Source: a virus (Duplodnaviria; Heunggongvirae; Uroviricota; Caudoviricetes). From it: a stretch of DNA of 33,826 bases. Of this stretch, positions 2,121-33,311 are shown in pieces (within the stretch, counting starts at the first letter, position 1; the number at the start of each line of letters is the position of its first letter). The notes below the pieces were generated by a model. That model saw only the letters and a program-made list of their open reading frames with translations. It had not been told where the DNA came from and made no database searches. The translations under genes and the position numbers were made by a program. The DNA lies in IMG/VR virus record IMGVR_UViG_2690316318_000017, positions 1-33,826 of that record; one strand, given 5' to 3'.

Positions 2121-2470
2121 TACATAATCCTCACAGGGTGTTCAAACGTCTGCGGTGTGCCCGCGTTATCCGTGACGGTGATTAACAGCAACAACCAGCC
2201 GCGCTGCCCCGGTTTTGTGTCAACGGTAATGGATTTTGCCCGCCCGTCATCGAGCAGGGGCTGAAGTGCCTGGCTGGCATACTGCGCCGCAAGCTTATGA
2301 ACACGGGAAACGTCTTTTTCCCGCTTCAGCTCGTGCAGGCGTGACCCCAGCGACGCATCCGCCCAGTAACTGCCAAGCGGCGTCGCCAGTCGCAGATAAA
2401 CCGCGTTATGAAGGGTATAAATCCGACGGCGTTCGTAGTCGCCGGTTGCAGGTGAAATCGTCTGGTCCAT
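2120..2470 (-). CDS. Baseplate protein, GP46 family-like
   Basis: 116 aa ORF with stop/start overlap to the downstream J-like gene; position matches Mu gp46. Confidence 0.5.
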   Translation of the reverse strand: MDQTISPATGDYERRRIYTLHNAVYLRLATPLGSYWADASLGSRLHELKREKDVSRVHKLAAQYASQALQPLLDDGRAKSITVDTKPGQRGWLLLLITVTDNAGTPQTFEHPVRIM

Positions 2471-2507
2471 GCCGCCAGTCTGGCAGCATGGACAGGTCAG
2501 AATCAGG

Positions 2508-11930: not shown

Positions 11931-12881
11931 TTACTCCGTCGTACCATCAGAACCAAATGCCATCTGCCAGAAGCCGTAACCGCCGTTACAGCGCGCTTCG
12001 GCACCAAACAGGAACTTCTTACGCTTGAACACGTTGTCGCTGTTGTAGTCCGTCTGCTCCACAAAAACAGGCTTTTTACGCAGCTGATAAATCAGCGGTT
12101 TCACCGGTTTGGTGGTGTCAAACAGGAACCACGCAGAATCCGACGCCAGCTCCGGCATCACCAGCACGTCGGCGGTACTGCGGTACGGGTTCGGCGTACT
12201 GTCCGGGAACTTCTCGGCGGTCATCAGGTAGTTCGCGTCATCTTCCAGCGCCGGTGGCACAACCAGCAGATTCGGGCGAATTTTGAGGGATGCGCCTTCG
12301 TCATCTTTCAGGCTGCGCATGGCAGTACGGGCGGCACCGTAGGAGGCTTTCGCCTCGGCAAGCGAGCCAACTTTGAGTTTTTTGGTGCCTTTATTGGACA
12401 CAGATTTACCGGCGACCAGGTGGTCGGTATCAAAGAACATCTGGCCGTCGTAACAGGGATTGGTAAAACCGTTACTGATAAGGGACGCCACAATATCTGC
12501 CGGGAGTTCTGCCGCCGACTGTCCGGCTCCTTTTGCCTGAAGGGCATAGCCCATAATCTGGTCGTCCTCGATGTCGTTACGATCGACTTCAACCGTGGCT
12601 TCCCAGTCCTTGTTACGGATGGTGTAGTTAAATGCCGCCAGTGATTTAACGACCTTGTCGCCAATCCACTCGCGCATTTTCGGGAAACGACTTAACCAGC
12701 TGTAGTCGTTTTCCTTGCCGTTTGATGGCACTTCCATTGCCACCTTCTGCCAGTCAGTTGGCGACTGGTCGAAGGCTTTCTGGAAGGTGGCCTTCAGATT
12801 GATAAAAATCTGTTTGACGTTTTTAACGTTGACTAACACGTTTTGCTCCTTAACTGAAATGAACCCAGACGCCATCGCCAC
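11931..12881 (-). CDS. Major head (capsid) subunit, Mu T-like
   Basis: 316 aa ORF downstream of the protease/scaffold gene in the head block. Confidence 0.7.
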   Translation of the reverse strand: MAMASGFISVKEQNVLVNVKNVKQIFINLKATFQKAFDQSPTDWQKVAMEVPSNGKENDYSWLSRFPKMREWIGDKVVKSLAAFNYTIRNKDWEATVEVDRNDIEDDQIMGYALQAKGAGQSAAELPADIVASLISNGFTNPCYDGQMFFDTDHLVAGKSVSNKGTKKLKVGSLAEAKASYGAARTAMRSLKDDEGASLKIRPNLLVVPPALEDDANYLMTAEKFPDSTPNPYRSTADVLVMPELASDSAWFLFDTTKPVKPLIYQLRKKPVFVEQTDYNSDNVFKRKKFLFGAEARCNGGYGFWQMAFGSDGTTE

Positions 12882-13245: not shown

Positions 13246-14415
13246 TTACTCATCTCCTGCGTAACGGGCGACATCCTCTGGATCGACGCCCATCATTGAA
13301 CAAATGGCGATATCGACATCGACGTCATCGCCGGTTTTAATCTGCGCCGGGGCAGGCGACGGCGTTTTGGGTGGTTTGCCGCCGGTCTGGGTGCTGCTGA
13401 GTGCGGCAAGCGGGGTGGTTTTATCCAGCCAGGTTTTAAAACCGTTGATATCGCGACGAGCGTAATCTTTCGCCCAGTCTTCCAGCGTCGGAAGCAGTCG
13501 TCCGTCAGACAGCGCCGCCTGAATCAGTGCCCCGGCTTCGGCCTCACCGGACTGTTGCGCCAGTGCGGCATAACGCCCCTGAAGTTCTTCATATGCCGTC
13601 AGAGGGATATGCTTCGTCGGGTCATAGGCATTTGCTGACAGGCTGGCGATTTGCTCGTCTTTCTGATTCAGCAGGGTCAGCAGACCAACAGAAGCCGCTG
13701 CCGTTCCTTTGCCACCAGAGACAGCATCAATAATTTTTTGCAGCTCTGCGCAGACTTCCTCTTCGGTTGAGGTTTCCGGCAGCGTCAGCAGCCAGCGTAA
13801 CTGTGCGAGTAAATTTGCTAATTGTTCCGGGTTCACGGTTTTGGTCTCCGTTTCAGTTGACAGACTCGCCAGACGGCTGGCCGCAGCCAGCATGACCGCG
13901 TCCATACCGTCCAGCGCAGGGGTATTGGTCAGCGCAGCATGTAACAGCTCCAGCACTTCGCCGCGCTTGTTGTAGGCAAAAACAGGGGAAATAAACTTGT
14001 ACTCACCGGCGGCAATCATGGCCGCCGCGTTCTCCGTCCACTCCACACCGGTGGCATACAGGCCCACACCTTCACGCCATTCCACCTGGCTGAACCAGCC
14101 CGCCGCCGGGGCGGGCTTGCCGTTGTTTACGGCGCGCAGCGTCTGATGTTCGTAATCAATGACAAAAGGCGTGGTACGGGCTGCCACCTGGGCGACAAGC
14201 TGCGCGGCCAGTTCAGCGGTCAGTACCCATTTACCGCTTTCGACTTCATCGGTATGTGGGCGACCATCAACCGCACTGAACTCGCCTGCCGGAAACAGCT
14301 GGATTTCGCTGTGGGTTGCTTTAGTAATTTCGAGGCTTAATGCCGCAATGTTCATCTTCATACGCGGCATGATGACGAAAGGGGAACACGGGGTACTGTT
14401 GAGGGTGTTCAGCAC
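13246..14415 (-). CDS. Head protease / scaffold protein, Mu I-like
   Basis: 389 aa ORF with Ala/Glu-rich scaffold-like C-terminal half; listed start is a GTG inside the conserved upstream motif, so the true start is probably the ATG near 14370. Confidence 0.65.
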   Translation of the reverse strand: MLNTLNSTPCSPFVIMPRMKMNIAALSLEITKATHSEIQLFPAGEFSAVDGRPHTDEVESGKWVLTAELAAQLVAQVAARTTPFVIDYEHQTLRAVNNGKPAPAAGWFSQVEWREGVGLYATGVEWTENAAAMIAAGEYKFISPVFAYNKRGEVLELLHAALTNTPALDGMDAVMLAAASRLASLSTETETKTVNPEQLANLLAQLRWLLTLPETSTEEEVCAELQKIIDAVSGGKGTAAASVGLLTLLNQKDEQIASLSANAYDPTKHIPLTAYEELQGRYAALAQQSGEAEAGALIQAALSDGRLLPTLEDWAKDYARRDINGFKTWLDKTTPLAALSSTQTGGKPPKTPSPAPAQIKTGDDVDVDIAICSMMGVDPEDVARYAGDE

Positions 14416-14417
14416 CC
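14391..14417 (-). promoter_or_regulatory. Conserved dyad motif copy 2 (candidate late promoter/activator site upstream of protease/scaffold gene)
   Basis: Plus-strand GGGTACTGTTGAGGGTGTTCAGCACCC, core GGGTG-N5-CACCC, 25/27 identical to copy 3. Confidence 0.45.
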
Positions 14418-14455
14418 GGCCATAACGGGAAAGGATAAAAGGGGAAATAAAACCG

Positions 14456-14480
14456 TTTTTAAAACCCTTTTAAAAACGAT
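14456..14480. other. AT-rich perfect palindrome in the central G-I intergenic region
   Basis: CGTTTTTAAAA-CCC-TTTTAAAAACG: 11-bp perfect inverted repeat with 3-bp spacer in the ~155-200 bp gap between the G-like and I-like genes. Confidence 0.5.
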
Positions 14481-14570
14481 TCTGACGGCATTTACGGGGT
14501 GCGGTGCTGTAATGCCTCATCCGTGAGGCGTTTATGTCGTCAGAGTCGATTACAGCGCGTTTGTGGTCAT

Positions 14571-15122
14571 TCAGTCAATCACACGCGCAAAATAGCGGTT
14601 TGCGGTGTTCTCCAGCTCGTCGATGTCGTCCTGCACAAGCTGAAGGAAGGGGCGCGCGGGCATGTTGACCGTATACGCTCCCACTGTTGCGCTCTGCACA
14701 AAATTACTGTTGCGCTTTTTCACAAAGCGGGTGCTGACGCTGCCGTTTTTGTACTGTTTAAAATACAGGTTCTGCGTCCGTGCCTGATGGCGGATTTCGC
14801 CCCCTTCGTTGTGGATACGGGCGTAACGGACGTTTGTCCCGACCGTGGCCTCGTTATTGTTAACCGCAGAGCGGATACTGGCAGCCAGTCGCCCGGACTT
14901 CTGAAGGATTTGCCCGGGGCCGCGTCGCTTCGCATAAGCCGGACTCCAGCCCATCCATTTCGGGCGACCCTGTTGTTCCAGGTTAGTCTCAACCGCATCC
15001 AGCATGGAACCCGCAAGCGCCGTCATCAGGTCGCGCCGGTCCTTCACGGAACGAATCAGTTTCCCCAGCGTGGTGTTATACGCGCTTAAATCAATCTTAA
15101 TATCCAGTTTACCGCTGCTCAT
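14571..15122 (-). CDS. Virion morphogenesis protein, Mu G-like
   Basis: 183 aa ORF downstream of the F-like gene with 4-nt overlap. Confidence 0.55.
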   Translation of the reverse strand: MSSGKLDIKIDLSAYNTTLGKLIRSVKDRRDLMTALAGSMLDAVETNLEQQGRPKWMGWSPAYAKRRGPGQILQKSGRLAASIRSAVNNNEATVGTNVRYARIHNEGGEIRHQARTQNLYFKQYKNGSVSTRFVKKRNSNFVQSATVGAYTVNMPARPFLQLVQDDIDELENTANRYFARVID

Positions 15123-16285
15123 GATGCCTCCGGGGTGTCCTGCATAACCCAGTCTGTCAGCACGTCATCCTCAACCGTCACCACCGACCAGCGGTCGCCC
15201 GACTGTAACGCATACCGCCACGCGTTACCGTCCTGCGTGACATGCTCCGCCCGTTCGATGGTCTGCTGCATCAGCACATAGTCGGCGGCGGTCGGGGGCG
15301 TGTCTGTTGCACTGAGGCGCTTCATAACGTCAGCCGTAAGGTTTACCGTCTGCCGTGCAGCACCCGTGGCGGCGACCTGTTCCGCTGAACGGATGGCCAG
15401 CGGATATCGCTGGCGCGCATCCAGTTCGCTGACGTTCGCCAGCCCCCGTGCAAAATCCGGCCCGGTCAGGGTGCCGGTAACATACTGGCGGGCACTGCGG
15501 TAATCGTATTTTTCCGGTTCCGGCTGCCATGCCACCCGACCGGGATTAAATCCGAAGCCCGGGTCGGCGGTATACACGGAACCGTCCGGCATCTTCAGCC
15601 CCATTGTTCTGATGGTCTGGCCCGGCTGGCCATATTCCTGTTCAACCTCAACCAGTCGCCCCTCGCTGCTCTGCACCGTCAGGCCATATTTCTCCACATC
15701 AGACGCCGAACGCGCCCGGATACGGCAGCGGCATCCGTACCCGTCAGGCGCGTAGAAATACTCCCAGACCGGGTCATCCGCCCGGGCGGTAAAACCGTTC
15801 AGGGCGGCGTGTTTCGGGCGGGTGTGAAGGTCCATCACCGCCACGCGCTCAAAATAAGGCCGGTCAGCCACGTTCGCTATCTGCTGCTGATAACGTCCGG
15901 CGTTGTATGACGACTGAATATTGGTATCAAATATCGTGCGCAACCGGCGCGGCGTCAGCTGTCTGCCGTGCAGTTCGCCGGTGTCCTCGTCCACAATCAG
16001 TTTTTTACCCAGCCAGCCTTTTGATTCCAGCAGTGGTTCCAGTTGTGCAGCAAACTCCCGGAACGTCCCGCCGTCAGCCAGTGCCGCCGTCAGGCCATCA
16101 CGGATATCCTTCAGCACATCCAGTTTCAGCACACCCGCCACCGTGAACGCCCGGGCGTTTGCAATATCCTTCACATCGTGCCAGCGGAAGCCGATAACGT
16201 ATCCCTTGCTTTCGAAATACTTAATCGCTTCTTCCGGCTTCAGGGTGTACGCATATCCCAGGTCAACATCGTCAGCTGTCGGCAT
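15119..16285 (-). CDS. Head morphogenesis protein, Mu F-like
   Basis: 388 aa ORF immediately downstream of the portal gene. Confidence 0.6.
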   Translation of the reverse strand: MPTADDVDLGYAYTLKPEEAIKYFESKGYVIGFRWHDVKDIANARAFTVAGVLKLDVLKDIRDGLTAALADGGTFREFAAQLEPLLESKGWLGKKLIVDEDTGELHGRQLTPRRLRTIFDTNIQSSYNAGRYQQQIANVADRPYFERVAVMDLHTRPKHAALNGFTARADDPVWEYFYAPDGYGCRCRIRARSASDVEKYGLTVQSSEGRLVEVEQEYGQPGQTIRTMGLKMPDGSVYTADPGFGFNPGRVAWQPEPEKYDYRSARQYVTGTLTGPDFARGLANVSELDARQRYPLAIRSAEQVAATGAARQTVNLTADVMKRLSATDTPPTAADYVLMQQTIERAEHVTQDGNAWRYALQSGDRWSVVTVEDDVLTDWVMQDTPEAS

Positions 16286-17867
16286 TCAGTCGCCCCCAGA
16301 TATCCGCCACAAAGAATGCCTGCGTCAGCAACTGCCGCAGCGTGTCATCCGGCAGTTCCGGCCACGCTTCCGCCAGTACATTCATGGCCTCGTCTGCATC
16401 CCGGCCTTCCTGTATGGCCTGCACCAGTGGGGCCACCAGTTCGTTCATCCCCTGCGCGATGGCCTCTGCCGGAAGCTCTGCCCGGTCGATGGCGCGCTGT
16501 GCCGGGTCGTCCTCCCCGTTGTCCTGCTGACTGAGCGCGGCAACATTCAGCCGCTCACGCAGCTGGCTGAGGCCCGCCTGCACAGGGAGATGCTGTGCCA
16601 CCGGCACCAGTACCTCTTCGCCGTCTTTCGGGGTGGGGATACCGGTTTTTTTGCGTACCCACGACACAGGGATATCCTTCATCCCCACATTGTTGACCAG
16701 CACGTTGACGGCTTCTGCCACGCCCTTAATGTCGGCTTCCTGCTGCACATCAAACACCAGACGCGGCAGACGGCGTGGCGGGATATCCTGCCAGCCGTTC
16801 AGGCTGGCCATCATCTGTATCAGGCTGCTGAACATGCCGGACAGCTGGCGAGCATCGGCGGCCAGAATGTCGCGCCGGACCTCGTTATGCACATTACCCA
16901 GCGCGTTGGTGGAGGTTTTACCGTCAGCCTGGCTGGTCAGCGTACTGCCCAGAATCACTTTTGAGGTGGTACGCTCCGCCCATTCCACCATCGACATGAA
17001 CGCCTCCGGCCCGCCGGACGCGGCTTCCTTGAACTCGATTTCGTTACCCTGCGGCAGGGCTGCCACCGCTTCATGGCCCAGATTGACCAGGGCTTCAAGA
17101 ATGTTGTCCCGGTCCTCGTCACTGGTGCCCTGTGCATAGTACGCAATGCGCGCCGGAAGGCCGTAAATCTCCAGAAATTCTGCCATATCACGCAGCGCAA
17201 AGTTTTTGAACAGATACGGCCAGACCAGTACACGAAACAGACCAGACGAACCCAGGAACCCCGACCGGGCGTTGTAACGGTGAACCAGCCAGCCGAACGG
17301 CCACAGCGCGGAACCGTCTTTACCATCTTCCCCACGATTGCCGTCATCCAGCCGGAGTTCGTCATTGTGTTCCGGCAGGGTAATAAACCAGTTATGCGGT
17401 CGCAGCGTCACCGCATCCGGTAACCACGTTTTATCCACGAACGCCCAGCTGATTTCCTGACAGCTGAAGCCGTAACCGACACTGGTCATCCCGTTGAGGA
17501 TGATGTCCTCCATGTCCGGGATACCGTGCAGCCATTCATCCACGGCGGCGGCCAGCTCCTTTTCTGCCTTCGAGGCATTGCGGGGTGGCTCCACCGACCA
17601 GTCCAGCGTCAGCAACGCTTTTTTGCGCTTTTCCATCTCGGCGAACAGATGACCATCACGTTCTTCCATATCCGCAAACAGCATCGCCTGCGCCGGAAGA
17701 TAACCGCGCTCGGCAGCTTCCAGAATGCGCGGCAGTTTTCTGATGTTCAGACCACGGGACGGGTGGTCGGGATAAATGCGCAGCCGTTCCGCCACTCTGA
17801 CCGACTGCGTGGTTTTGAGTGCCTCACGTTTCAGCGGGCGTCCGTAAATATCAACAAGCTGTGCCAT
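16272..17867 (-). CDS. Portal protein (Mu gp29/H-like)
   Basis: 531 aa ORF directly downstream of the terminase large subunit. Confidence 0.75.
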   Translation of the reverse strand: MAQLVDIYGRPLKREALKTTQSVRVAERLRIYPDHPSRGLNIRKLPRILEAAERGYLPAQAMLFADMEERDGHLFAEMEKRKKALLTLDWSVEPPRNASKAEKELAAAVDEWLHGIPDMEDIILNGMTSVGYGFSCQEISWAFVDKTWLPDAVTLRPHNWFITLPEHNDELRLDDGNRGEDGKDGSALWPFGWLVHRYNARSGFLGSSGLFRVLVWPYLFKNFALRDMAEFLEIYGLPARIAYYAQGTSDEDRDNILEALVNLGHEAVAALPQGNEIEFKEAASGGPEAFMSMVEWAERTTSKVILGSTLTSQADGKTSTNALGNVHNEVRRDILAADARQLSGMFSSLIQMMASLNGWQDIPPRRLPRLVFDVQQEADIKGVAEAVNVLVNNVGMKDIPVSWVRKKTGIPTPKDGEEVLVPVAQHLPVQAGLSQLRERLNVAALSQQDNGEDDPAQRAIDRAELPAEAIAQGMNELVAPLVQAIQEGRDADEAMNVLAEAWPELPDDTLRQLLTQAFFVADIWGRLNADS

Positions 17868-17870
17868 TAA

Positions 17871-19529
17871 TTACCATCCTCCTGAACCAAAACGCCCGCC
17901 ACGGTCACGCCCGCTGCTGCGTGGGGTGTGTATCTGAAATTTTGCGCTGCGCGATACCGCCAGCGTCCACAGCATGTGCAGACAGTCCGGGCCATCATCG
18001 TGGTCGGCTTTGGGGTAGTGGCGCAGCTGGTCAATCAGCGTCTGATGTGCCGGACTGATGCGAATCAGGCCGTTGGCCATATGCGGCTGAAGGGATTCGA
18101 TACGCAGCGCTTTATCCTCCAGCGGGATGACCGGCAGTGCCGGAACCGGCACACCCAGCGCCGCCGAACGCTCAACCAGCACGGTACGCAGAAACTCCTG
18201 AAACTGAACGGATTCAAACGACCAGCACAGGCAGTGATATTCACGCTGATACTTAATCACGTCTTCGATAAGTTTATTCGGCAGACGTCGGCGGATATCG
18301 GCTTCAACCACATCCAGAATGCCGGTAAAGCGGTTAAAGCCCCCCACGAGAATGGCCGACGGGTCGCGGTTTTTATTCTTCTTCCCGAGGCTGGGGTCAA
18401 CAGCGCCGTAGAACACCCATTCATCAAGACGGTTAACCCAGAATTTAATGCAGCCCGCAAACAGCGCATCTTCACCGCTGACCGGGTCGTTCTGGTATTC
18501 AGAATCAAAGGTGTCGTGACCATCACGGACACGGATTTTCATCAGCGCCAACAGGGGACGCGCCGCCCATGACACCACCGACCCGGCGAGCATCTCGGCT
18601 TCGTTCTGCCGGTAAAGTGCCTCCGCCGCTTCCGGCTGTTTGTTGCGGATGAGTTCTTCCCACTCGTCCCACAGCTTCATGTTGGCAGGCCACTGAATAA
18701 CAGCCTTAAAGCGGGCTGTTTTCCACATCGGGTTATTGAGTGTGCGCGACAGCACGGAGTCGTAATGCAGAATGGTCCCGATATAAATAATATCGGTTTT
18801 ACCGCCAGCCTCGCCCAGCGGCATCACGGTTTTGGTAAGCCAGTCATGCAGCTTGTCGCGCTGCTCCGGGTTACGCACCATTTCGTCGTTCTCGATATCG
18901 TCGAGGATGACCAGGTCAGGACGGTACGGGCCGTGACGCAGACCACGCAGCTTTTTACCACTACCAGCGACGGTCACCTTGATATTGTTGGCCGTGACGA
19001 TGGTCCCCATACGCCAGACGCGACCCTGCCCGCACACCTCCGGGAAATCGTTTTTTAAACGGGGGTTAAACTCCAGTTCAGCCTTGATGGCTTCCAGCAT
19101 CGGATAAGCCTGGTCGATACTGTCCATAATGATGACCGGGTAATGCTTAATGGCCCGGATAATGGTCCACAGGGTAAACAGCTGAGTCACCAGCGTGGAT
19201 TTTGCTTCACCACGGGGCGCGGCGATGGCGTCGTTCTCCGGGTCCGGGCTTGCCACAACCTGTGGCAGACGGCTGAACAGGTATTTATGCAGCTCGCTTT
19301 TTGCCGGGTTGCGGACGTAGTGCGGGAAATAATTTTCGACAAAATAATCATAGCCCGTCACCGGATCGCAGACTGCCGCCCGGCGGGCCTGTGTGGCCTG
19401 TGGGTTAACATCGAACCCCAGACATTCAGCCTCAATGGTCTGGCGGAGGTTGGCGATGTACTCCTGCAGGCTTCTCTGAAACTCTTTAATGGAAAGTTTA
19501 CGTTTTGCCACGTCACACCTGGTATACAA
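17871..19529 (-). CDS. Terminase large subunit
   Basis: 552 aa ORF upstream of portal; first in-frame ATG is >130 codons in, so the start is probably TTG (19529) or GTG (about 19511). Confidence 0.75.
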   Translation of the reverse strand: MYTRCDVAKRKLSIKEFQRSLQEYIANLRQTIEAECLGFDVNPQATQARRAAVCDPVTGYDYFVENYFPHYVRNPAKSELHKYLFSRLPQVVASPDPENDAIAAPRGEAKSTLVTQLFTLWTIIRAIKHYPVIIMDSIDQAYPMLEAIKAELEFNPRLKNDFPEVCGQGRVWRMGTIVTANNIKVTVAGSGKKLRGLRHGPYRPDLVILDDIENDEMVRNPEQRDKLHDWLTKTVMPLGEAGGKTDIIYIGTILHYDSVLSRTLNNPMWKTARFKAVIQWPANMKLWDEWEELIRNKQPEAAEALYRQNEAEMLAGSVVSWAARPLLALMKIRVRDGHDTFDSEYQNDPVSGEDALFAGCIKFWVNRLDEWVFYGAVDPSLGKKNKNRDPSAILVGGFNRFTGILDVVEADIRRRLPNKLIEDVIKYQREYHCLCWSFESVQFQEFLRTVLVERSAALGVPVPALPVIPLEDKALRIESLQPHMANGLIRISPAHQTLIDQLRHYPKADHDDGPDCLHMLWTLAVSRSAKFQIHTPRSSGRDRGGRFGSGGW

Positions 19530-19563: not shown

Positions 19564-20067
19564 TTAACTGAAATTATCCTCAAGCTCTTTAGCGAAACCT
19601 TCGAGCACTTCAAGGAACGCGGCATACTGTGCCGGGTGACGCTCCTTGATGAATGCGCCGAGCCGCTGCACCACTTCCAGTGCCGTGGCGAGCCGGTCGG
19701 TTTCCGGCAGGATTTTTTTACTGCTGGCCACCGCCTTACTGAGACTGTCAGACAGACTCGCCAGCAGTTCGACGGACTCCTGCGGCGGGATGTCCGGGTT
19801 CTGGTTCAGCCGTTCAAGCGTCGTCTGACACTTCACCACCAGACTGATAAGCACGGTGCGGGCGACACTTTCCAGCCCGTCACCGGCGAGCGCGTGCGCG
19901 GCCCGCAGCTTGTCCCAGTCGTCGCCGTTTTTCATCGCCTGCGTTTTCCAGCGCCGCGCGGTGTCGTGCGGCACGGCGAACTTCATGGCGACGATATCCA
20001 GCGGAAGCTGGTCAAAGATGTACCCGTTACGGACTTTGTCCCTGATATCCTGTGACCACGCCATCAA
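19564..20067 (-). CDS. Terminase small subunit-like DNA-binding protein (Mu gp27-like)
   Basis: 167 aa ORF immediately upstream of the large subunit. Confidence 0.5.
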   Translation of the reverse strand: MMAWSQDIRDKVRNGYIFDQLPLDIVAMKFAVPHDTARRWKTQAMKNGDDWDKLRAAHALAGDGLESVARTVLISLVVKCQTTLERLNQNPDIPPQESVELLASLSDSLSKAVASSKKILPETDRLATALEVVQRLGAFIKERHPAQYAAFLEVLEGFAKELEDNFS

Positions 20068-21129: not shown

Positions 21130-21415
21130 GTGGATGCCTCAGTAACGAAAGGATTTTTGACAAATTCCCGTGCGCCCACACGATAAGCGCACAGAAAACC
21201 AGATTCAGCGCCACAACCAGCCAGCTTGAGTGCGTGTATGTACCGGACAGCCAGCGGAACGGGATGATGATGTATCCGAGCATCAGCCAGTACGCCAGCC
21301 AGGTAATCATCGGTTTATGCGCCGCACCGTGGCGGCGATACACAAACAACCCCAATACAATGGCGAGACACAGCCAGACGTTCACGATACCGGCAAGGCT
21401 ACTTTCCATTTCCAC
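21113..21415 (-). CDS. Holin-like membrane protein (three predicted TM segments)
   Basis: 100 aa with three hydrophobic stretches; overlaps endolysin start by 17 nt. Confidence 0.45.
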   Translation of the reverse strand: MEMESSLAGIVNVWLCLAIVLGLFVYRRHGAAHKPMITWLAYWLMLGYIIIPFRWLSGTYTHSSWLVVALNLVFCALIVWAHGNLSKILSLLRHPHEIKR

Positions 21416-21851
21416 CCCCTCCGCCGCGCAGTCTGGAAAACAGGCCGAACAGCGATGAAATTTCCTGTTGATAAAGAAAGGTCAGTATCTTGATGGATAA
21501 CGCCGAGACACCGACCGCACACAATGCATCGAGCGGTTTGTCGTTGTAGTGGGTCAGCCACTGCATCAGTGACGCAGCCACGCCAGCCCCCAGAACGCCA
21601 ACCACAAACGCGACGAGCAGGTGAATAGCCATTCGCCAGACCGGGATTTCTTTTTGCTGCGTGACAACAAAAAGCGCCCCGGCAAACGCGCCCACCACGA
21701 CTCCGAAATCGGTATTGGTGAGAAGACCAAACACACTGGCACCACCGATGGTGACTGCCACAGCTCCGCCGCCTGATAAGGGTTCAGACATGAGTTTCTC
21801 CTGTAAATCTGAGCCACTGACGGCCCGTAAATAACACCCTGTCAAAGGCAC
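21399..21851 (-). CDS. Holin/antiholin-like multi-pass membrane protein
   Basis: Gly/Ala/Val-rich hydrophobic protein; listed start is GTG, likely true start is the internal MSEPLSGGG ATG about 60 nt downstream; first gene after the conserved upstream motif. Confidence 0.4.
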   Translation of the reverse strand: MPLTGCYLRAVSGSDLQEKLMSEPLSGGGAVAVTIGGASVFGLLTNTDFGVVVGAFAGALFVVTQQKEIPVWRMAIHLLVAFVVGVLGAGVAASLMQWLTHYNDKPLDALCAVGVSALSIKILTFLYQQEISSLFGLFSRLRGGGGGNGK

Positions 21852-21933: not shown

Positions 21934-21954
21934 GCTGGGGGTGTTCAGCACCCC
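21934..21954 (-). promoter_or_regulatory. Conserved dyad motif copy 3 (candidate late promoter/activator site upstream of lysis cassette)
   Basis: Plus-strand GGGTACTGCTGGGGGTGTTCAGCACCCC; 25/27 identical to the copy at about 14391-14417. Confidence 0.45.
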
Positions 21955-22276: not shown

Positions 22277-22744
22277 TTAATCAAAAAGCCCCACCAGGGT
22301 GGGGCTTTTCAGCGAAGTCTGTTTTTGTCGTCGGTGTATCAGCTGCCATGCATACCGGTCTGAAATGCCGTAACGGGGACAGAGCAGTGCCAGCGCCTGC
22401 CGGTGTGAGCATCCGTCTTTTACATGCTGCTGTAAATCAGCCATAAAACGGGTGTTACGCAGGGCACGTAACGCATGATCGCAACGGGGAATGTAAAACG
22501 GAGCACCGCCAAGAAAGCGGATCAGTTTGTTGATTTCGTCTTCGGTCAGCACATCATGTAACAGGGCATGGACACCGCCGGTTCGTTCGGCGTGTGCGCC
22601 GGTTTTACCGCTTAACGTCACGCCACCAAAAGAACGGATTAACCGGGTCAGAGCGGGGAAGCCAATCACGCTAATCAGTTGCTGCACGGAATCAGGCAAC
22701 AGTGCCTGCGCATCGCGAAGATCTGTTTCACTGAAGGTCTGCAT
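22277..22744 (-). CDS. Mor/C-family transcriptional activator of middle/late genes
   Basis: 155 aa; C-terminal pattern LGGAPFYIPRCDHALRALRNTRFMADL...RYGISDRYAWQLIHRRQ matches the Mor/C signature (G..YIP plus HTH). Confidence 0.7.
   Translation of the reverse strand: MQTFSETDLRDAQALLPDSVQQLISVIGFPALTRLIRSFGGVTLSGKTGAHAERTGGVHALLHDVLTEDEINKLIRFLGGAPFYIPRCDHALRALRNTRFMADLQQHVKDGCSHRQALALLCPRYGISDRYAWQLIHRRQKQTSLKSPTLVGLFD
22280..22312 (-). terminator. Rho-independent terminator after the Mor/C-like gene
   Basis: Minus-strand hairpin AAAAGCCCCACC-CUGG-UGGGGCUUUUU followed by a U-run; overlaps the last codons of the upstream gene. Confidence 0.6.
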
Positions 22745-28751: not shown

Positions 28752-28991
28752 TTATTGCCATACGACGGTGCAGCCGTCGATACAGGACGTTTTAACCACA
28801 CGACGCAGGCCGCTGAATGTCTGGATGATTTCCGTTATCGGCCATACAGGACCGCCCACGGGCGGGCAGGCATAAACCACAGGTAAACGGTGATGTTGCC
28901 CAGTTACGCGACCGCCGGTGGTGTGGATGGCTACACGGGCACGGGAACGGACGGCGTTAATGGTCTGCTTGTCCATCGTCTTGTTCTCCAT
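28752..28991 (-). CDS. Hypothetical small protein immediately downstream of B (kil-like position)
   Basis: 79 aa ORF whose start overlaps the B stop codon. Confidence 0.3.
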   Translation of the reverse strand: MENKTMDKQTINAVRSRARVAIHTTGGRVTGQHHRLPVVYACPPVGGPVWPITEIIQTFSGLRRVVKTSCIDGCTVVWQ

Positions 28992-29884
28992 CAGTGAATT
29001 AACATTTCTGAATATTTATCAATGACCTGCACACTGACCGGTGCATCGCTGATATCACAAATCCGGTACACACCGCGCGCCAGCTTGAACAGACGACGGG
29101 CATTGCCCAGCGAACGTGTGTAAAGTGCCTCACCAATTTCCGGGTCTGCCGCTTCCGGCATCATGTCTGTGGCAATCTTGTTAAAATCTTCCTGCGTCAG
29201 CGTATCGCCCAGGTTAAGCGCCAGCGCCACGCGGCTGTATAATTGAGCGAACTCACCACAACGGCCCTTAAGGTTAATCAGAAGGTGAGGCATACCCGCC
29301 AGGACAATCCCGATACCCGCTTTGTCATGCAGACGGCGCAATACCTCCAGTGCACGATAGGGAAGCAGTTCAGCCTCATCCACCATCAGCAGACGACCTG
29401 ACCCACGCAGTTCACGCACACAGGCATCAATCTTCTCGCGAATATCGCCGTGAACCTTTATACCCAGCTGACGGCACAGTTCATCGAGTAACTTTCTGGC
29501 CGTATAGCCAATATCGGCTTCAATGAGCACTACATCCCGGTTTCTGGCAGCATACTCACTCAGAATCATGCTTTTACCCAGACCCGCCGCGCCATACAGC
29601 ACGCAAATATCACACTCCAGATGGGCGTAGGTCAGCACCTCCAGCCCTTTGGCGGCCATGCCGGTGGTGACAAATCGCACTTTAATACGGCGGTTGTTTT
29701 CCTTTTCCCATTCACGGGTCACAAAGGCAGAAATGCGTTCTTCAATATCAGCCATATCGCCCTGATATTTACCCTGCAAATACTGGTTAATAACGGCGCT
29801 GCTACGACCAATAGCACGGGCAACGTGGGTCTGCGTAAAGCCGCGACGGGCCATTACGTCATTTAATTGCGTAATTAAACTCAT
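28991..29884 (-). CDS. B: Transposition ATPase, MuB-like
   Basis: 297 aa; N-terminal HTH-like region then Walker A (GAAGLGKS) and Walker B-like (LLMVDEAE) motifs; directly downstream of the transposase. Confidence 0.8.
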   Translation of the reverse strand: MSLITQLNDVMARRGFTQTHVARAIGRSSAVINQYLQGKYQGDMADIEERISAFVTREWEKENNRRIKVRFVTTGMAAKGLEVLTYAHLECDICVLYGAAGLGKSMILSEYAARNRDVVLIEADIGYTARKLLDELCRQLGIKVHGDIREKIDACVRELRGSGRLLMVDEAELLPYRALEVLRRLHDKAGIGIVLAGMPHLLINLKGRCGEFAQLYSRVALALNLGDTLTQEDFNKIATDMMPEAADPEIGEALYTRSLGNARRLFKLARGVYRICDISDAPVSVQVIDKYSEMLIH

Positions 29885-29902: not shown

Positions 29903-31978
29903 TTAACGATTATTTGTGCCGTTTTTCTTTAAATTGCGCTCACGGTCAGACACGAATAAATAAAGTTCTTCTTTTTCCTTTTTCTCCTGGCGTTCCAGTC
30001 CATATCCCAGATTAAAGTCAGGCTTCTGCGTAATAGCCGGGGTAAGCTCGCGTTTAGCCTCTTCGATTTTCTGCGTGGCCCGTGCAATGCGGCCTCTGGC
30101 GCGTTTCTCCTGCTGCTGTTCGATAACAGCTTTCGGGAACGCATCAACCTTATTACCGTTCCAGATGGCATCGCAGATATAAGAGCCATCAGCCCGCCGG
30201 ACAATGACGCTGTTTGCATCATGAATATCGTAACTGACCCTGACTTCATTCCCGTGCTCTGCGGCCAGCTCATACGAGTAATAAATATTGTTGAATAACT
30301 GAATTTCCCCGCGAAATGTTTTGCGCGTCACTTCCGGCCTGAACATTTCATGCAGTTCTTCCTGCGACAGAAAATCAATTTCAACATTCTGCTCTTTTAT
30401 CAGTTTCCGGCGATACGCTGCCGGGCTGTAATATTCGCCATCCTCTTTGCGGGGAAGGCTGCTGTGTGGCCGGTTGTTATAGCGTCTGACCTCCAGCTCT
30501 ATGGCGGCCATCAGTTGCTCAAAGGTAGGGATTTCATCCCTCGCCTTAACCTGCCGTTTTGTCAGCTCTTTCCCTTTGTGGGTGGCCTTAATGGCTGACT
30601 GTGTGATGCGTTGCTGCATCATCACCGTTTCCTTGTCTGCATTTTTTGAGCAGTACGTCTGGAAACTCAGAGCCACATCTTTGGGTATTCCTTTGTTTGC
30701 TCGTTCTATTACCCCGCGCCCCTGCGGGTTACCAGGTATCCCCGTGTGATGCTCCACACCCAGCCGGGGCAGAATCCCGGTAATATCGGCATCAAGTACC
30801 TGGTTTTTTTCACCGCCCCCGTTATCGGAGTAATAAATCAGCGGTATTCCGTGCTGTGCCATGCCGTAACGTAATGCATCAGCAACGGCTATCACGTTTT
30901 CCGACAGGGACAGGGACCAGCCCACAACAAAGCGCTGCCCCGCATCCATAACCAGCGTCACTTCTGGCCGGAAAATATTGCCGGTCAGGGGGTTAAACGC
31001 GGTCATTTTCATACAATGACCATCCCCGACCCATACCGCATTAACCGGTAATGATGTCCACTCGCGCCGCACAAAGGGATTGAGCGAACGCCAGGCTGAA
31101 CCTGTGGAGCGGAAACGCTCCTTAACAATCACCGGGACGCTGCTTAACACCCGTCTTACTGCGTGAACTGAAGGCAGTGCCGCCAGCATTCCCGCATCGT
31201 TCGCGTGTTTTTCATGCCACCAGGCTGAAAACTCGCGATACGCATATTCAACGGTCGGTCGCTTCCATGAGCGATAGAACATAAAGAAATCGCTCAACCA
31301 CCAGACCTGCTCCCACGGTGTCCCCTTATGATGACCGGGAGCCAGTAACGCCAGTAACTGATTGGCATCACCGCGCGCCATCACCCAGCTGGAGTACCAG
31401 CTATCCAGGCTGCCGGTGCTGACACCGGTTCGCTTTCCCTGACGTGCATTTGCAGTATTAGCTGCTTCGATAATGCGGTCAGGTAACGCCCCCATGCGCA
31501 CACCATCAACGATGTGCTTTAACGCGGCCTTCCTGGTCATTCCGGCGTATTCACGCAGTTTATGCACTTCAGTAGCCAGCAATATCCGCGCATCAGCGAT
31601 GGCCTTTTGCTTGTCGGTCAGTGCCTGGACTTCGCGTAATGCCAGTTCAGGGCATTTGACCATCACTTCAAGTTCATCGCGAATGGTGACGTTCTTAACT
31701 GCCTTCTGCTCAACCACAACGGGCAGTTGCGTATCTTCCAGGACCTGATGGGTCAGGCGTTGACGTAAAACCTTCTGAACATCTTTAGGTAAACTGGATA
31801 TATGGTACTCATATATTTTCCCCTGAACTCCAGACTTCCTTCTTCTTGTCCAGTTCGCTCGTTTAGCTTTTTGAGTGATCCCCTGTACAGTTTTCGGTAG
31901 CCCTTGAAGCCCTGTTAGTTCATTCAACGTAAACCATTCAGGTTCGAACTTGACTTCATAGTCGTTGTTCTTATTCAT
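29903..31978 (-). CDS. A: DDE transposase, MuA-like
   Basis: 691 aa; N-terminal DNA-binding domain paralogous to the repressor N-terminus; central core with acidic residues (VWVGDGHCMKM... and IYYSDNGGGEKN) consistent with a DDE/RNase H-fold catalytic domain. Confidence 0.9.
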   Translation of the reverse strand: MNKNNDYEVKFEPEWFTLNELTGLQGLPKTVQGITQKAKRANWTRRRKSGVQGKIYEYHISSLPKDVQKVLRQRLTHQVLEDTQLPVVVEQKAVKNVTIRDELEVMVKCPELALREVQALTDKQKAIADARILLATEVHKLREYAGMTRKAALKHIVDGVRMGALPDRIIEAANTANARQGKRTGVSTGSLDSWYSSWVMARGDANQLLALLAPGHHKGTPWEQVWWLSDFFMFYRSWKRPTVEYAYREFSAWWHEKHANDAGMLAALPSVHAVRRVLSSVPVIVKERFRSTGSAWRSLNPFVRREWTSLPVNAVWVGDGHCMKMTAFNPLTGNIFRPEVTLVMDAGQRFVVGWSLSLSENVIAVADALRYGMAQHGIPLIYYSDNGGGEKNQVLDADITGILPRLGVEHHTGIPGNPQGRGVIERANKGIPKDVALSFQTYCSKNADKETVMMQQRITQSAIKATHKGKELTKRQVKARDEIPTFEQLMAAIELEVRRYNNRPHSSLPRKEDGEYYSPAAYRRKLIKEQNVEIDFLSQEELHEMFRPEVTRKTFRGEIQLFNNIYYSYELAAEHGNEVRVSYDIHDANSVIVRRADGSYICDAIWNGNKVDAFPKAVIEQQQEKRARGRIARATQKIEEAKRELTPAITQKPDFNLGYGLERQEKKEKEELYLFVSDRERNLKKNGTNNR

Positions 31979-32174: not shown

Positions 32175-32420
32175 GTCTCTACCTCTTCACATAAATCAAC
32201 AGATATGAGATCTTGAGTGATTACTCGCATGTGTACGCGATTGAGTTACTCACCTGCGTGAAGAATACTAGATTTAAACAATGTTTAAGTCAACACGTTT
32301 AAATCTATGTTTAAAACATTTTAGCAAGCAGGTTGCTTATCGTTTTGTTTTTGAAGTAATTTTTGCGTTTTAAACAAAAGCTCTATTTCATGCTCTTTTG
32401 TTTAAATCTAAGGGGTTAGA
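32175..32420. promoter_or_regulatory. Divergent early/repressor promoter-operator region
   Basis: 246 bp AT-rich intergenic region between divergent ner and repressor genes with five TTTAAA cores and an exact 11-bp direct repeat GTTTAAATCTA at about 32297 and 32400. Confidence 0.6.
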
Positions 32421-32999
32421 ATGAAACAAGAATGGGTTGCCGCAAAAGACCTGGTAGGGCTTCATGGTTTACCTGCCACAATTCAGGGAATTCACCAAAA
32501 AGCCAAAAGGGGCGGATGGCGCAAAGAGAAAAGAATTACACCTGGTGTGAAGGGACATCAGGTATACTTCTACTTGCCTGATTTGCCTGAAAAAATACGC
32601 TGCTCCTTGGTGTCGAAAGACGGAGAAACTCCAGTGAGGAATGATTTAAACAAAGGGTTGATATCAATACTGGAAATGACATCCGCAGAAGATCAATTCA
32701 ATCTTTTTCGCGCTTTGTGTGAATTTGGCATCAAAGGAGTCCTAGAACACCTACAACAACCCACCAGGCAAGCTACGCAGGCCGACAGCGACCAGGACGA
32801 ACAGGAGAATGCCATCAGAAGCCTAAACATCAGGGAATCGCTTAAAGATGTTATATGTATGGCTCTAGATGGTAATGAAGAAACCGACAAAGAGATTTTG
32901 CGACGCATCGAATCTCGTGCACGGGCTGGGTCGCCAGGTGGTCAGACCGTTGCCACGCCGGAGCAAGAAACGAAGCCTGTAAACAAGAAATCAGCATAA
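32421..32999 (+). CDS. c: Mu-type repressor (c-like)
   Basis: 192 aa, only phage ORF on plus strand, divergent from ner-A-B; N-terminal 60 aa is paralogous to the transposase N-terminus (shared Mu operator/enhancer-binding domain); RBS AAGGGG. Confidence 0.6.
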   Translation: MKQEWVAAKDLVGLHGLPATIQGIHQKAKRGGWRKEKRITPGVKGHQVYFYLPDLPEKIRCSLVSKDGETPVRNDLNKGLISILEMTSAEDQFNLFRALCEFGIKGVLEHLQQPTRQATQADSDQDEQENAIRSLNIRESLKDVICMALDGNEETDKEILRRIESRARAGSPGGQTVATPEQETKPVNKKSA

Positions 33000-33160
33000 G
33001 CGCCTCGTTTTGGCGGGGCGTGTGCTGTTAGCTAATCAGCAATAACCACAACAAAACCGAACACAACAGATGAGAACAAATTGAGGAAAACGGGCAAGGA
33101 TAAAACACTTTTTAAAAGCATTTAAAACCCGTTAAGTTTGTAGCAGAACCAGATCAAAAG

Positions 33161-33303: not shown

Positions 33304-33311
33304 ACCCCACA

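Follow-up and report, generated by a model that had tools for sequence, protein, structure and literature searches.

The stretch of DNA analysed here (33,826 nucleotides, called the window below) is a Mu-like prophage that is read on the minus strand. Its genes include those for repression, transposition, lysis and head formation:

32421-32999, plus strand: repressor with a Mu DNA-binding domain
29903-31978, minus strand: transposase A
28991-29884, minus strand: B-like ATPase
22277-22744: Mor-family activator
21399-21851: holin
16272-17867: portal protein
15119-16285: F-like protein
14571-15122, minus strand: G-like virion morphogenesis gene (PF05069, E 1.7e-25; called 'phage virion morphogenesis protein' by RefSeq in relatives)
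13246-14361, minus strand: I-like head protease/scaffold gene (PF10123, E 2.4e-100; 30-33% identity to Mu I)
11931-12881: major head protein T

The region is 94-98% identical to a prophage present in 55 of 5,426 complete Escherichia coli genomes, that of E2348/69 among them, and matches at the DNA level are confined to these 55 genomes, a megablast search of the region against the phage collection having returned none. In E2348/69 the complete relative is about 35.7 kb long and is inserted in eutC. The window lacks any equivalent of the 'tRNA-OTHER' that RefSeq places, on the opposite strand, between F-like and G-like genes in Sp18-type prophages (L047-L049, ~1150-1237).

The subject of this study is the gap between the G-like and I-like genes (hereafter G and I). 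In the RefSeq annotation of close relatives I starts with MKMNIAAL (ATG at 14361), and thus the gap comprises 14362-14570, or 209 bp. It holds the following features:

14549-14562, minus strand: AAACGC(GCTGTAA) element AAACGCGCTGTAAT after the G stop codon, invariant or nearly so in a 14-sequence alignment
14454-14478: palindrome CGTTTTTAAAA-CCC-TTTTAAAAACG
14443-14484: 42-bp block consisting of the TTTAAA tandem and a third T block, with no variable site among ten E. coli-family variants
14425-14453, minus strand: extension of the phased signals, TTTTATTT-CCCC-TTTTATCC-TTT-CCC, T-block starts 12 bp apart
14398-14417, minus strand: late-promoter motif GGGTGCTGAACACCCTCAAC with the dyad GGGTG-CTGAA-CACCC, 42 bp from the palindrome
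14369-14374, minus strand: -10-like CATCAT, with the ATG of I (14359-14361) 7 nt downstream

The palindrome is a perfect 11-bp inverted repeat with a 3-bp spacer (CGTTTTTAAAACCCTTTTAAAAACG on the plus strand), as described in the initial annotation, and it begins and ends 2 bp from where it had been placed there. It has no second match in the window with up to 3 mismatches allowed, and it was reproduced in none of 100 dinucleotide shuffles. In the direction of the genes, on the minus strand, it reads TTTTTAAAA-GGG-TTTTAAAAA, that is, two phased TTTAAA blocks. These are directly followed on the same strand by a phased T-rich run (GGTTTTATTTCCCCTTTTATCCTTTCCC, 14453-14426), which had also been pointed out at the outset. 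Five T/A blocks are found in 14477-14429, the starts of the first four being 12 bp apart. When AT/GC periodicity is scored over 70-bp intervals, 14432-14501 ranks second in the window; the Mu gyrase site's right arm, used as a control, likewise ranks second in Mu.

The left terminus of the prophage has been located at 33311 by the sequence TGTGGGGTAGTGATCAATTCTGGGCGG, which is common to the E2348/69 relative, and the centre of the palindrome therefore lies 18,845 bp from the left end. This agrees with the earlier estimate of about 18.8 kb from the repressor end, near the middle of the genome: in the 35.7-kb relative the corresponding position is about 54% of the way along the genome. The annotated gyrase cut of Mu (17879/17880) is 20 bp past G and at 49% of the genome. 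The palindrome thus has the central position in the G-I intergenic region that characterizes a strong gyrase site (SGS) of the Mu type.

A phased TTTAAA tandem in Mu-like loci

For comparison, 43 loci from one-genome-per-species bacterial genomes and 80 from IMG/VR were collected, about 120 in all from gamma- and beta-proteobacteria, to which were added Mu, D108, an Sp18-type prophage of E. coli O157:H7, a Klebsiella phage, a Mannheimia phage and two Pseudomonas casadabanviruses. Upstream of I, TTTAAA blocks recur in tandem, phased with a period of 11-12 bp and separated by G-rich spacers; 32 distinct forward variants give the consensus CGTTTTTAAAAgGGGTTTAAAaacGG. Within 300 nt upstream of I, 15 of 48 loci have the pattern TT[AT]AA-N5-8-TT[AT]AA, while 0.52 would be expected and 300 shuffle sets gave 4 at most; among distinct IMG/VR loci it occurs in 48 of 74. 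About half of the roughly 120 related loci keep the motif, and it is also present in the Klebsiella phage, in the Mannheimia phage (with four blocks) and in the Pseudomonas casadabanviruses.

Is it the palindrome or the phased blocks that have been maintained? An inverted repeat matching at 10 or more of 11 positions is found in 10 of the 32 distinct variants, while a direct repeat matching at 9 or more of 11 is found in 24, and the palindrome is thus specific to a lineage and not the selected feature. All 10 inverted-repeat variants, which include a Buttiauxella locus and the Klebsiella phage, have an I protein at least 46% identical to that of the window. Palindromy is then a lineage-specific by-product of two adjacent TTTAAA blocks, each of which is self-complementary, and it is the phased blocks that are conserved. 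Within the lineage, the palindrome is invariant in 10 E. coli and 9 IMG/VR variants. On the other side, the 92 bp from the tandem toward the G stop codon contain 23 variable sites (25%) and two 1-bp indels among the ten E. coli variants.

In many loci (L003-L007, L053, L073, L081 and others) the tandem and the AAACGC(GCTGTAA) element after G are 76-78 or 85-88 bp apart. These two classes of spacing differ by roughly a turn of the helix, and the sequence in between is not conserved. In Mu, AAACGC (17832) is found 85 bp ahead of the Mu tandem.

A generalization that we put forward tentatively, as plausible but short of an even chance, is that the tandem TTTAAA(c)GGGG acts in cis across the family, in either orientation, as a mark of the genome centre in transposable phages; it is found in Enterobacteriaceae, Pasteurellaceae, Pseudomonas and beta-proteobacteria.

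Transcription signals between G and I

Two roles in transcription have to be weighed, both of them named as alternatives in the initial annotation. One is that the palindrome, with the late-promoter motif 42 bp downstream of it, belongs to the late promoter of the I operon and serves there as an UP-like element or binds an activator; phased AT-rich DNA upstream of promoters can stimulate transcription. However, the motif GTGCTGAACACCC[T/C]CA, of which there are 7 matches against 0.8 expected, is found on the minus strand not only before I (14400-14417) but also before the holin gene (21936-21953) and before gp46 (2508-2523), and only the copy at I has a TTTAAA tandem upstream; the other two do without it. 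Across loci, 42 to about 120 bp separate the tandem from the late-promoter motif, and the tandem is inverted relative to I in 9 of 60. The palindrome is thus neither an element common to late promoters nor one held at a fixed distance from the start, and the variable promoter distance, the inversion and the absence at two other late promoters together indicate that the tandem is independent of transcription signals. Participation of the palindrome in the I promoter is consequently regarded as highly improbable, and the earlier alternative gives way to the separate motif at 14398-14417, two further copies of which have no tandem.

That motif is probably a Mor/C-type activator site for the I operon, separate from the palindrome. 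The three late-promoter-like copies, which precede the gp46/baseplate, I/head and holin/lysis operons, seem analogous to PP, PI and Plys of Mu. At the gp46 promoter (2468-2483, minus strand) the -10-like hexamer and the ATG have the same geometry as at I. Judged from this spacing, the late mRNAs at 14359-14374 and 2468-2483 may be leaderless, and the mRNA of I probably is. In many relatives (L008, L011, L013, L142, L144) the hexamer is located in the loop of a hairpin CATGCCGCC-N6-GGCGGCATG, the 3' arm of which contains the start codon.

The other role is that of a weak Rho-independent terminator after G. The minus-strand RNA can form a 16-bp stem (-12.3 kcal/mol, z -2.8) followed by a U-rich tract, a fold equalled in 2 of 200 shuffles, and the E. 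coli family has no canonical GC-rich terminator of the kind seen after G in Buttiauxella, Intestinirhabdus, Trabulsiella and Mannheimia. Nevertheless, A-U or G-U pairs make up almost the entire stem and a scan for terminators did not pick it up, so that what is seen is not the conserved GC-rich stem-loop with a U-tract of a Rho-independent terminator; nor did an Rfam search of the element give a match. Most relatives that keep the tandem lack the hairpin, only 10 of 32 variants having the inverted repeat (at least 10/11), and the element is inverted in some loci. Relatives have a separate terminator between G and the tandem, upstream of the latter; in other genera the AAACGC(GCTGTAA) element forms the 5' arm of the terminator hairpin. 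The weak terminator suggested earlier is not conserved. That the palindrome is mainly a terminator in this lineage appears improbable, if less so than a promoter function, though it may have a minor lineage-specific part in termination.

Relation to mapped strong gyrase sites

Among natural high-affinity gyrase sites the SGS has been studied best, and Mu needs it to replicate fast; to our knowledge, only a few phages have had such a site mapped. In Mu and D108 it occupies the G-I gap near the centre of the genome, and its right arm, toward I, consists of phased T/A blocks with G/C spacers; the Mu arm reads gaTTTTTTAAAAcgcgccacgggaTTTTTAAAccggTATTTAAcgg in this direction. The right arm, with its bend-inducing repeat motifs, is essential for the Mu site while the left arm is dispensable (PMC10052514), and in a cryo-EM structure the AT repeats of the right arm face the GyrA C-terminal domain (PMC11626157). 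The bending promoted by the repeat motifs is described as taking place around a GyrA pinwheel. The SGS of the Sakai prophage can substitute for that of Mu (PMC10052514).

The gap of the window is related in sequence to this experimentally mapped site. A family PWM was built from the related loci with Mu left out; its best match in the whole Mu genome falls at 17912-17938, inside the mapped right arm of the SGS, with a score of 22.9, which exceeds the maximum of 200 dinucleotide shuffles, and its top match in the window is the palindrome, with a score of 40.7. In the best local alignment of the two gaps, window 14477-14429 is paired with Mu 17912-17962, through TTTTATCCTTTC; its score of 28 compares with a shuffle mean of 17.5 and was reached by 1 of 500 shuffles. 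The comparison with Mu-family sites that had been proposed in the initial annotation has led to the right arm. Alignment of the Mu gap with the Sp18-type gap pairs the same blocks, at an identical offset from the G stop codon, and 2 of 500 shuffles reach its score.

The register of the blocks can also be compared. The AT blocks of the window, of Mu, of the Sp18-type site and of the outer right arm in the Topo-Seq consensus (..TTTgggggccTTTAAgggggccTTTT..) coincide if the centre in the window is set at about 14511. When the 164-nt Mu module is slid along the window without gaps, identity peaks at a centre of 14513 (63/164, rank 2 of about 67,000 registers). The predicted right arm in the window shows a long series of phased bending signals, as is typical of an SGS, where AT blocks recur every ~10.5-12 bp.

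Seen in this register, the blocks of the palindrome are homologous to Mu right-arm blocks at about +34 and +47, and the extension at 14425-14453 is comparable to the extended right arm of Mu (TTTTATCTTCCTTTC). The arm of the window is conserved and its G-proximal side variable, just as in Mu the right arm is essential and the left dispensable. There are also differences. The proteins that flank the gap are only about 30% identical to those of Mu; at +12 Mu possesses a strong additional block, TTTTTTAAAA, to which only GTAAAT corresponds in the window; the block spacing is a regular 12 bp in the window but 22/13/11 in Mu; and the two blocks form a perfect palindrome in the window.

The Sp18-type SGS of E. 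coli O157:H7 (for which the sequence of the relative strain Z887, not the Sakai genome, was used) also lies between G and I. Its three phased blocks, TTTTCTAA-cctga-ATTTAA-cgggc-TTTAAAA, are those of Mu and the window and stand in register with them. Direct similarity between it and the window is weak, however, as 116 of 500 shuffles reach it, and the link is made via Mu and the family motif. The gyrase motif obtained by Topo-Seq (Sutormin et al., PMC6379681) provides a further likeness: the outer right arm of its 133-bp consensus reads ..cccTTTgggggccTTTAAgggggccTTTTgga, with an alternation of T blocks and G spacers at 10-12 bp as in the phage tandem TTTAAAcGGGGTTTAAA, a qualitative resemblance taken from the consensus string. 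The 12-bp spacing of the window is at the long end of the range of that consensus.

How far can the site be located by such comparisons? Strong/weak or exact matching to the 133-bp Topo-Seq consensus did not rank the Mu SGS highly in Mu, which served as the positive control, and neither did correlation with a right-arm template. Scoring by identity to the consensus core fails to single out the site even in Mu, and all three scans were set aside. The phase of the AT blocks relative to Mu, together with the Topo-Seq consensus, leads to the following arrangement:

14495-14530: predicted G-segment and cleavage core, centre about 14508-14513, ~35 bp from the palindrome toward G
14484-14425, minus strand: predicted right arm of phased TTTAAA and T-rich blocks with G/C-rich spacers, the palindrome included

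Within the predicted core, a placement to which we attach low confidence, GGCATTACAGCACCGCAC resembles the Mu core GGCATAAAATCAGCCGCAC. The core region is 24% variable among E. coli relatives, with 1-bp indels, and is without support from conservation. An imperfect 23-bp inverted repeat (78%), 14474-14496/14529-14551, is centred at 14512.5, which is also the predicted gyrase dyad. Its arms as an RNA or DNA hairpin were considered and rejected, as E. coli variants show no compensatory changes.

A candidate SGS has been proposed in Pseudomonas phage Ab30 from a 37-bp segment free of insertions after the G-like gene (PMC5977238), and it shares with the site of the window a central position in a transposable phage. 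The tandem of Ab30 (L144, LN610590; GTTAACCCCGTTAGAACCCCGTTAGAA at 19631-19659) is found elsewhere: it is inverted and lies just upstream of I, about 0.9 kb to the right of the proposed segment and beyond extra genes between G and I. The insertion-free segment overlaps the region just past the G-like gene, upstream of the first downstream ORF, and does not coincide with the tandem. In JBD93 (L142), a casadabanvirus like Ab30, the tandem is likewise inverted (GTTAACCCCGTTAGAACCCCGTTAGAA) and located just upstream of I.

On balance, the similarities in position, register and sequence favour the view that the G-I gap of the window carries a homologue of the Mu SGS, with the palindrome within its right arm. 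By homology with Mu, the palindrome is probably the distal part of that arm (about +34 to +57) and not the cleavage site. The earlier proposal of an SGS equivalent is therefore retained in part: position, similarity to the right arms of Mu and the Sp18-type prophage, and family-wide conservation speak for it, but the palindrome as such is lineage-specific and corresponds to the distal arm and not to the site of cleavage. An invariant 14443-14484 beside a variable G-proximal 92 bp would match an essential right arm with a tolerant left arm and core.

Other possible binding proteins and the proposed gyrase module

The same conservation could have another cause, namely that the tandem is recognized specifically by some protein other than gyrase that bends or bridges DNA, whether a nucleoid protein of the host or a conserved one of the phage. 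Such a protein could act together with a second copy of the tandem just inside attL to organize the prophage or the transpososome. The motif is near-identical across hosts and, with TTTAAA and CGGGG, more sequence-specific than generic bendability requires, and the two units within one phage resemble each other (L018, L037, L005). The second tandem, GGGTTTTAAATGCTTTTAAAAAGTGTTTTATCCTTGCCCGTT, lies on the minus strand at 33089-33130, immediately inward of the third transposase-binding repeat of attL; it has TTTTATCCTTnCCCGTT in common with the central site and scores 22.1 with the family PWM at 33103-33130, above all shuffles. Its position inside attL is conserved, a tandem being present there (~1.16-1.2 kb upstream of A) in IMG/VR relatives, one of them with 60% transposase identity. 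Moreover, formation of the Mu domain needs the L end, IHF, Fis and HU besides the SGS (PMC3820752).

Against a protein other than gyrase, inspection of the gap sequence by eye for the IHF and Fis consensus sequences yielded no convincing site, and the homologous blocks of Mu sit in the very site where wrapping by gyrase has been visualized (PMC11626157). The tandem is not tied to immunity specificity either: the E2348/69 relative differs from the window in repressor N-terminus and operators but has the same central and attL tandems. The Klebsiella phage has the central copy only, although its record lacks the left end. A bridging protein other than gyrase is accordingly thought rather unlikely, while remaining the most serious competitor of those considered here.

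A site of the operator type, for repressor or transposase, was also considered and was rejected, since the tandem does not co-vary with immunity type, as seen in E2348/69 and the Klebsiella phage. The operator region of the window (32265-32410) contains 5-6 TTTAAAC repeats, of which two are spaced by 12 bp. Unrelated operators without TTTAAAC are found in the E2348/69 relative (L002, 1964-2150), whose repressor has a different N-terminal domain and the same C-terminal half, which indicates mosaic exchange of immunity. The operators of the Klebsiella phage also lack TTTAAAC repeats.

Further matches to the family PWM occur away from the centre and from attL. A third strong one in the window, TTTTTTAAACGGGGGTTAAACTCCAGT at 19051-19077 on the plus strand, lies inverted in the large terminase gene with a score of 26.5; it is conserved in E2348/69 and has no equivalent in the Klebsiella phage. 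The second-best match in Mu, AGCATTTAACGGGGTTTAAATGGCTTA at 29824-29850 (L046), falls at the gp46/gp47 junction with a score of 20.7, reached by 0.5% of shuffles. We know of no strong gyrase site at that junction of Mu. The original cleavage assays on Mu DNA revealed a single strong cleavage site (PMC10052514), and given the secondary matches in the window and in Mu, the tandem alone is thus probably not sufficient for a strong site. Likewise, the central sequences of Mu-like prophages other than that of Sakai did not promote Mu replication (PMC10052514), and homology in position and motif is therefore no guarantee of a functional SGS.

Returning to the homologue of the Mu SGS, we infer gyrase binding, the position of cleavage and a role in replication at the site in the window, and an outline of the process would be as follows. 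Host DNA gyrase would bind a module of ~130-160 bp in the G-I gap, with the G-segment and cleavage core near 14508-14513 and with the 3' end and stop codon of the G-like gene within the left arm. On the other side, the phased blocks of the right arm would turn an AT minor groove toward the C-terminal pinwheel of GyrA at intervals of 11-12 bp; the arm could thereby be wrapped and presented as the T-segment. Tight binding of this kind might allow processive supercoiling from the centre of the prophage, which would help to join the two prophage ends for replicative transposition after induction.

What would such a site mean for the family? For the window alone, a central gyrase-type site is an expected feature of a Mu-like prophage, and it is the family-wide motif that is of more interest. 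If the proposal is true, the tandem would provide a simple sequence signature for the central gyrase sites of Mu-like prophages, and its natural variants would offer a set of right arms with which to study sequence-directed chiral wrapping by GyrA, as well as candidate elements for engineering the supercoiling of plasmids. The conservation of such sites among transposable phages was described as unclear in 2021 (PMC8705779). A motif that is found throughout the family and maps onto the functionally essential right arm of Mu bears on how general central gyrase sites may be in transposable phages.
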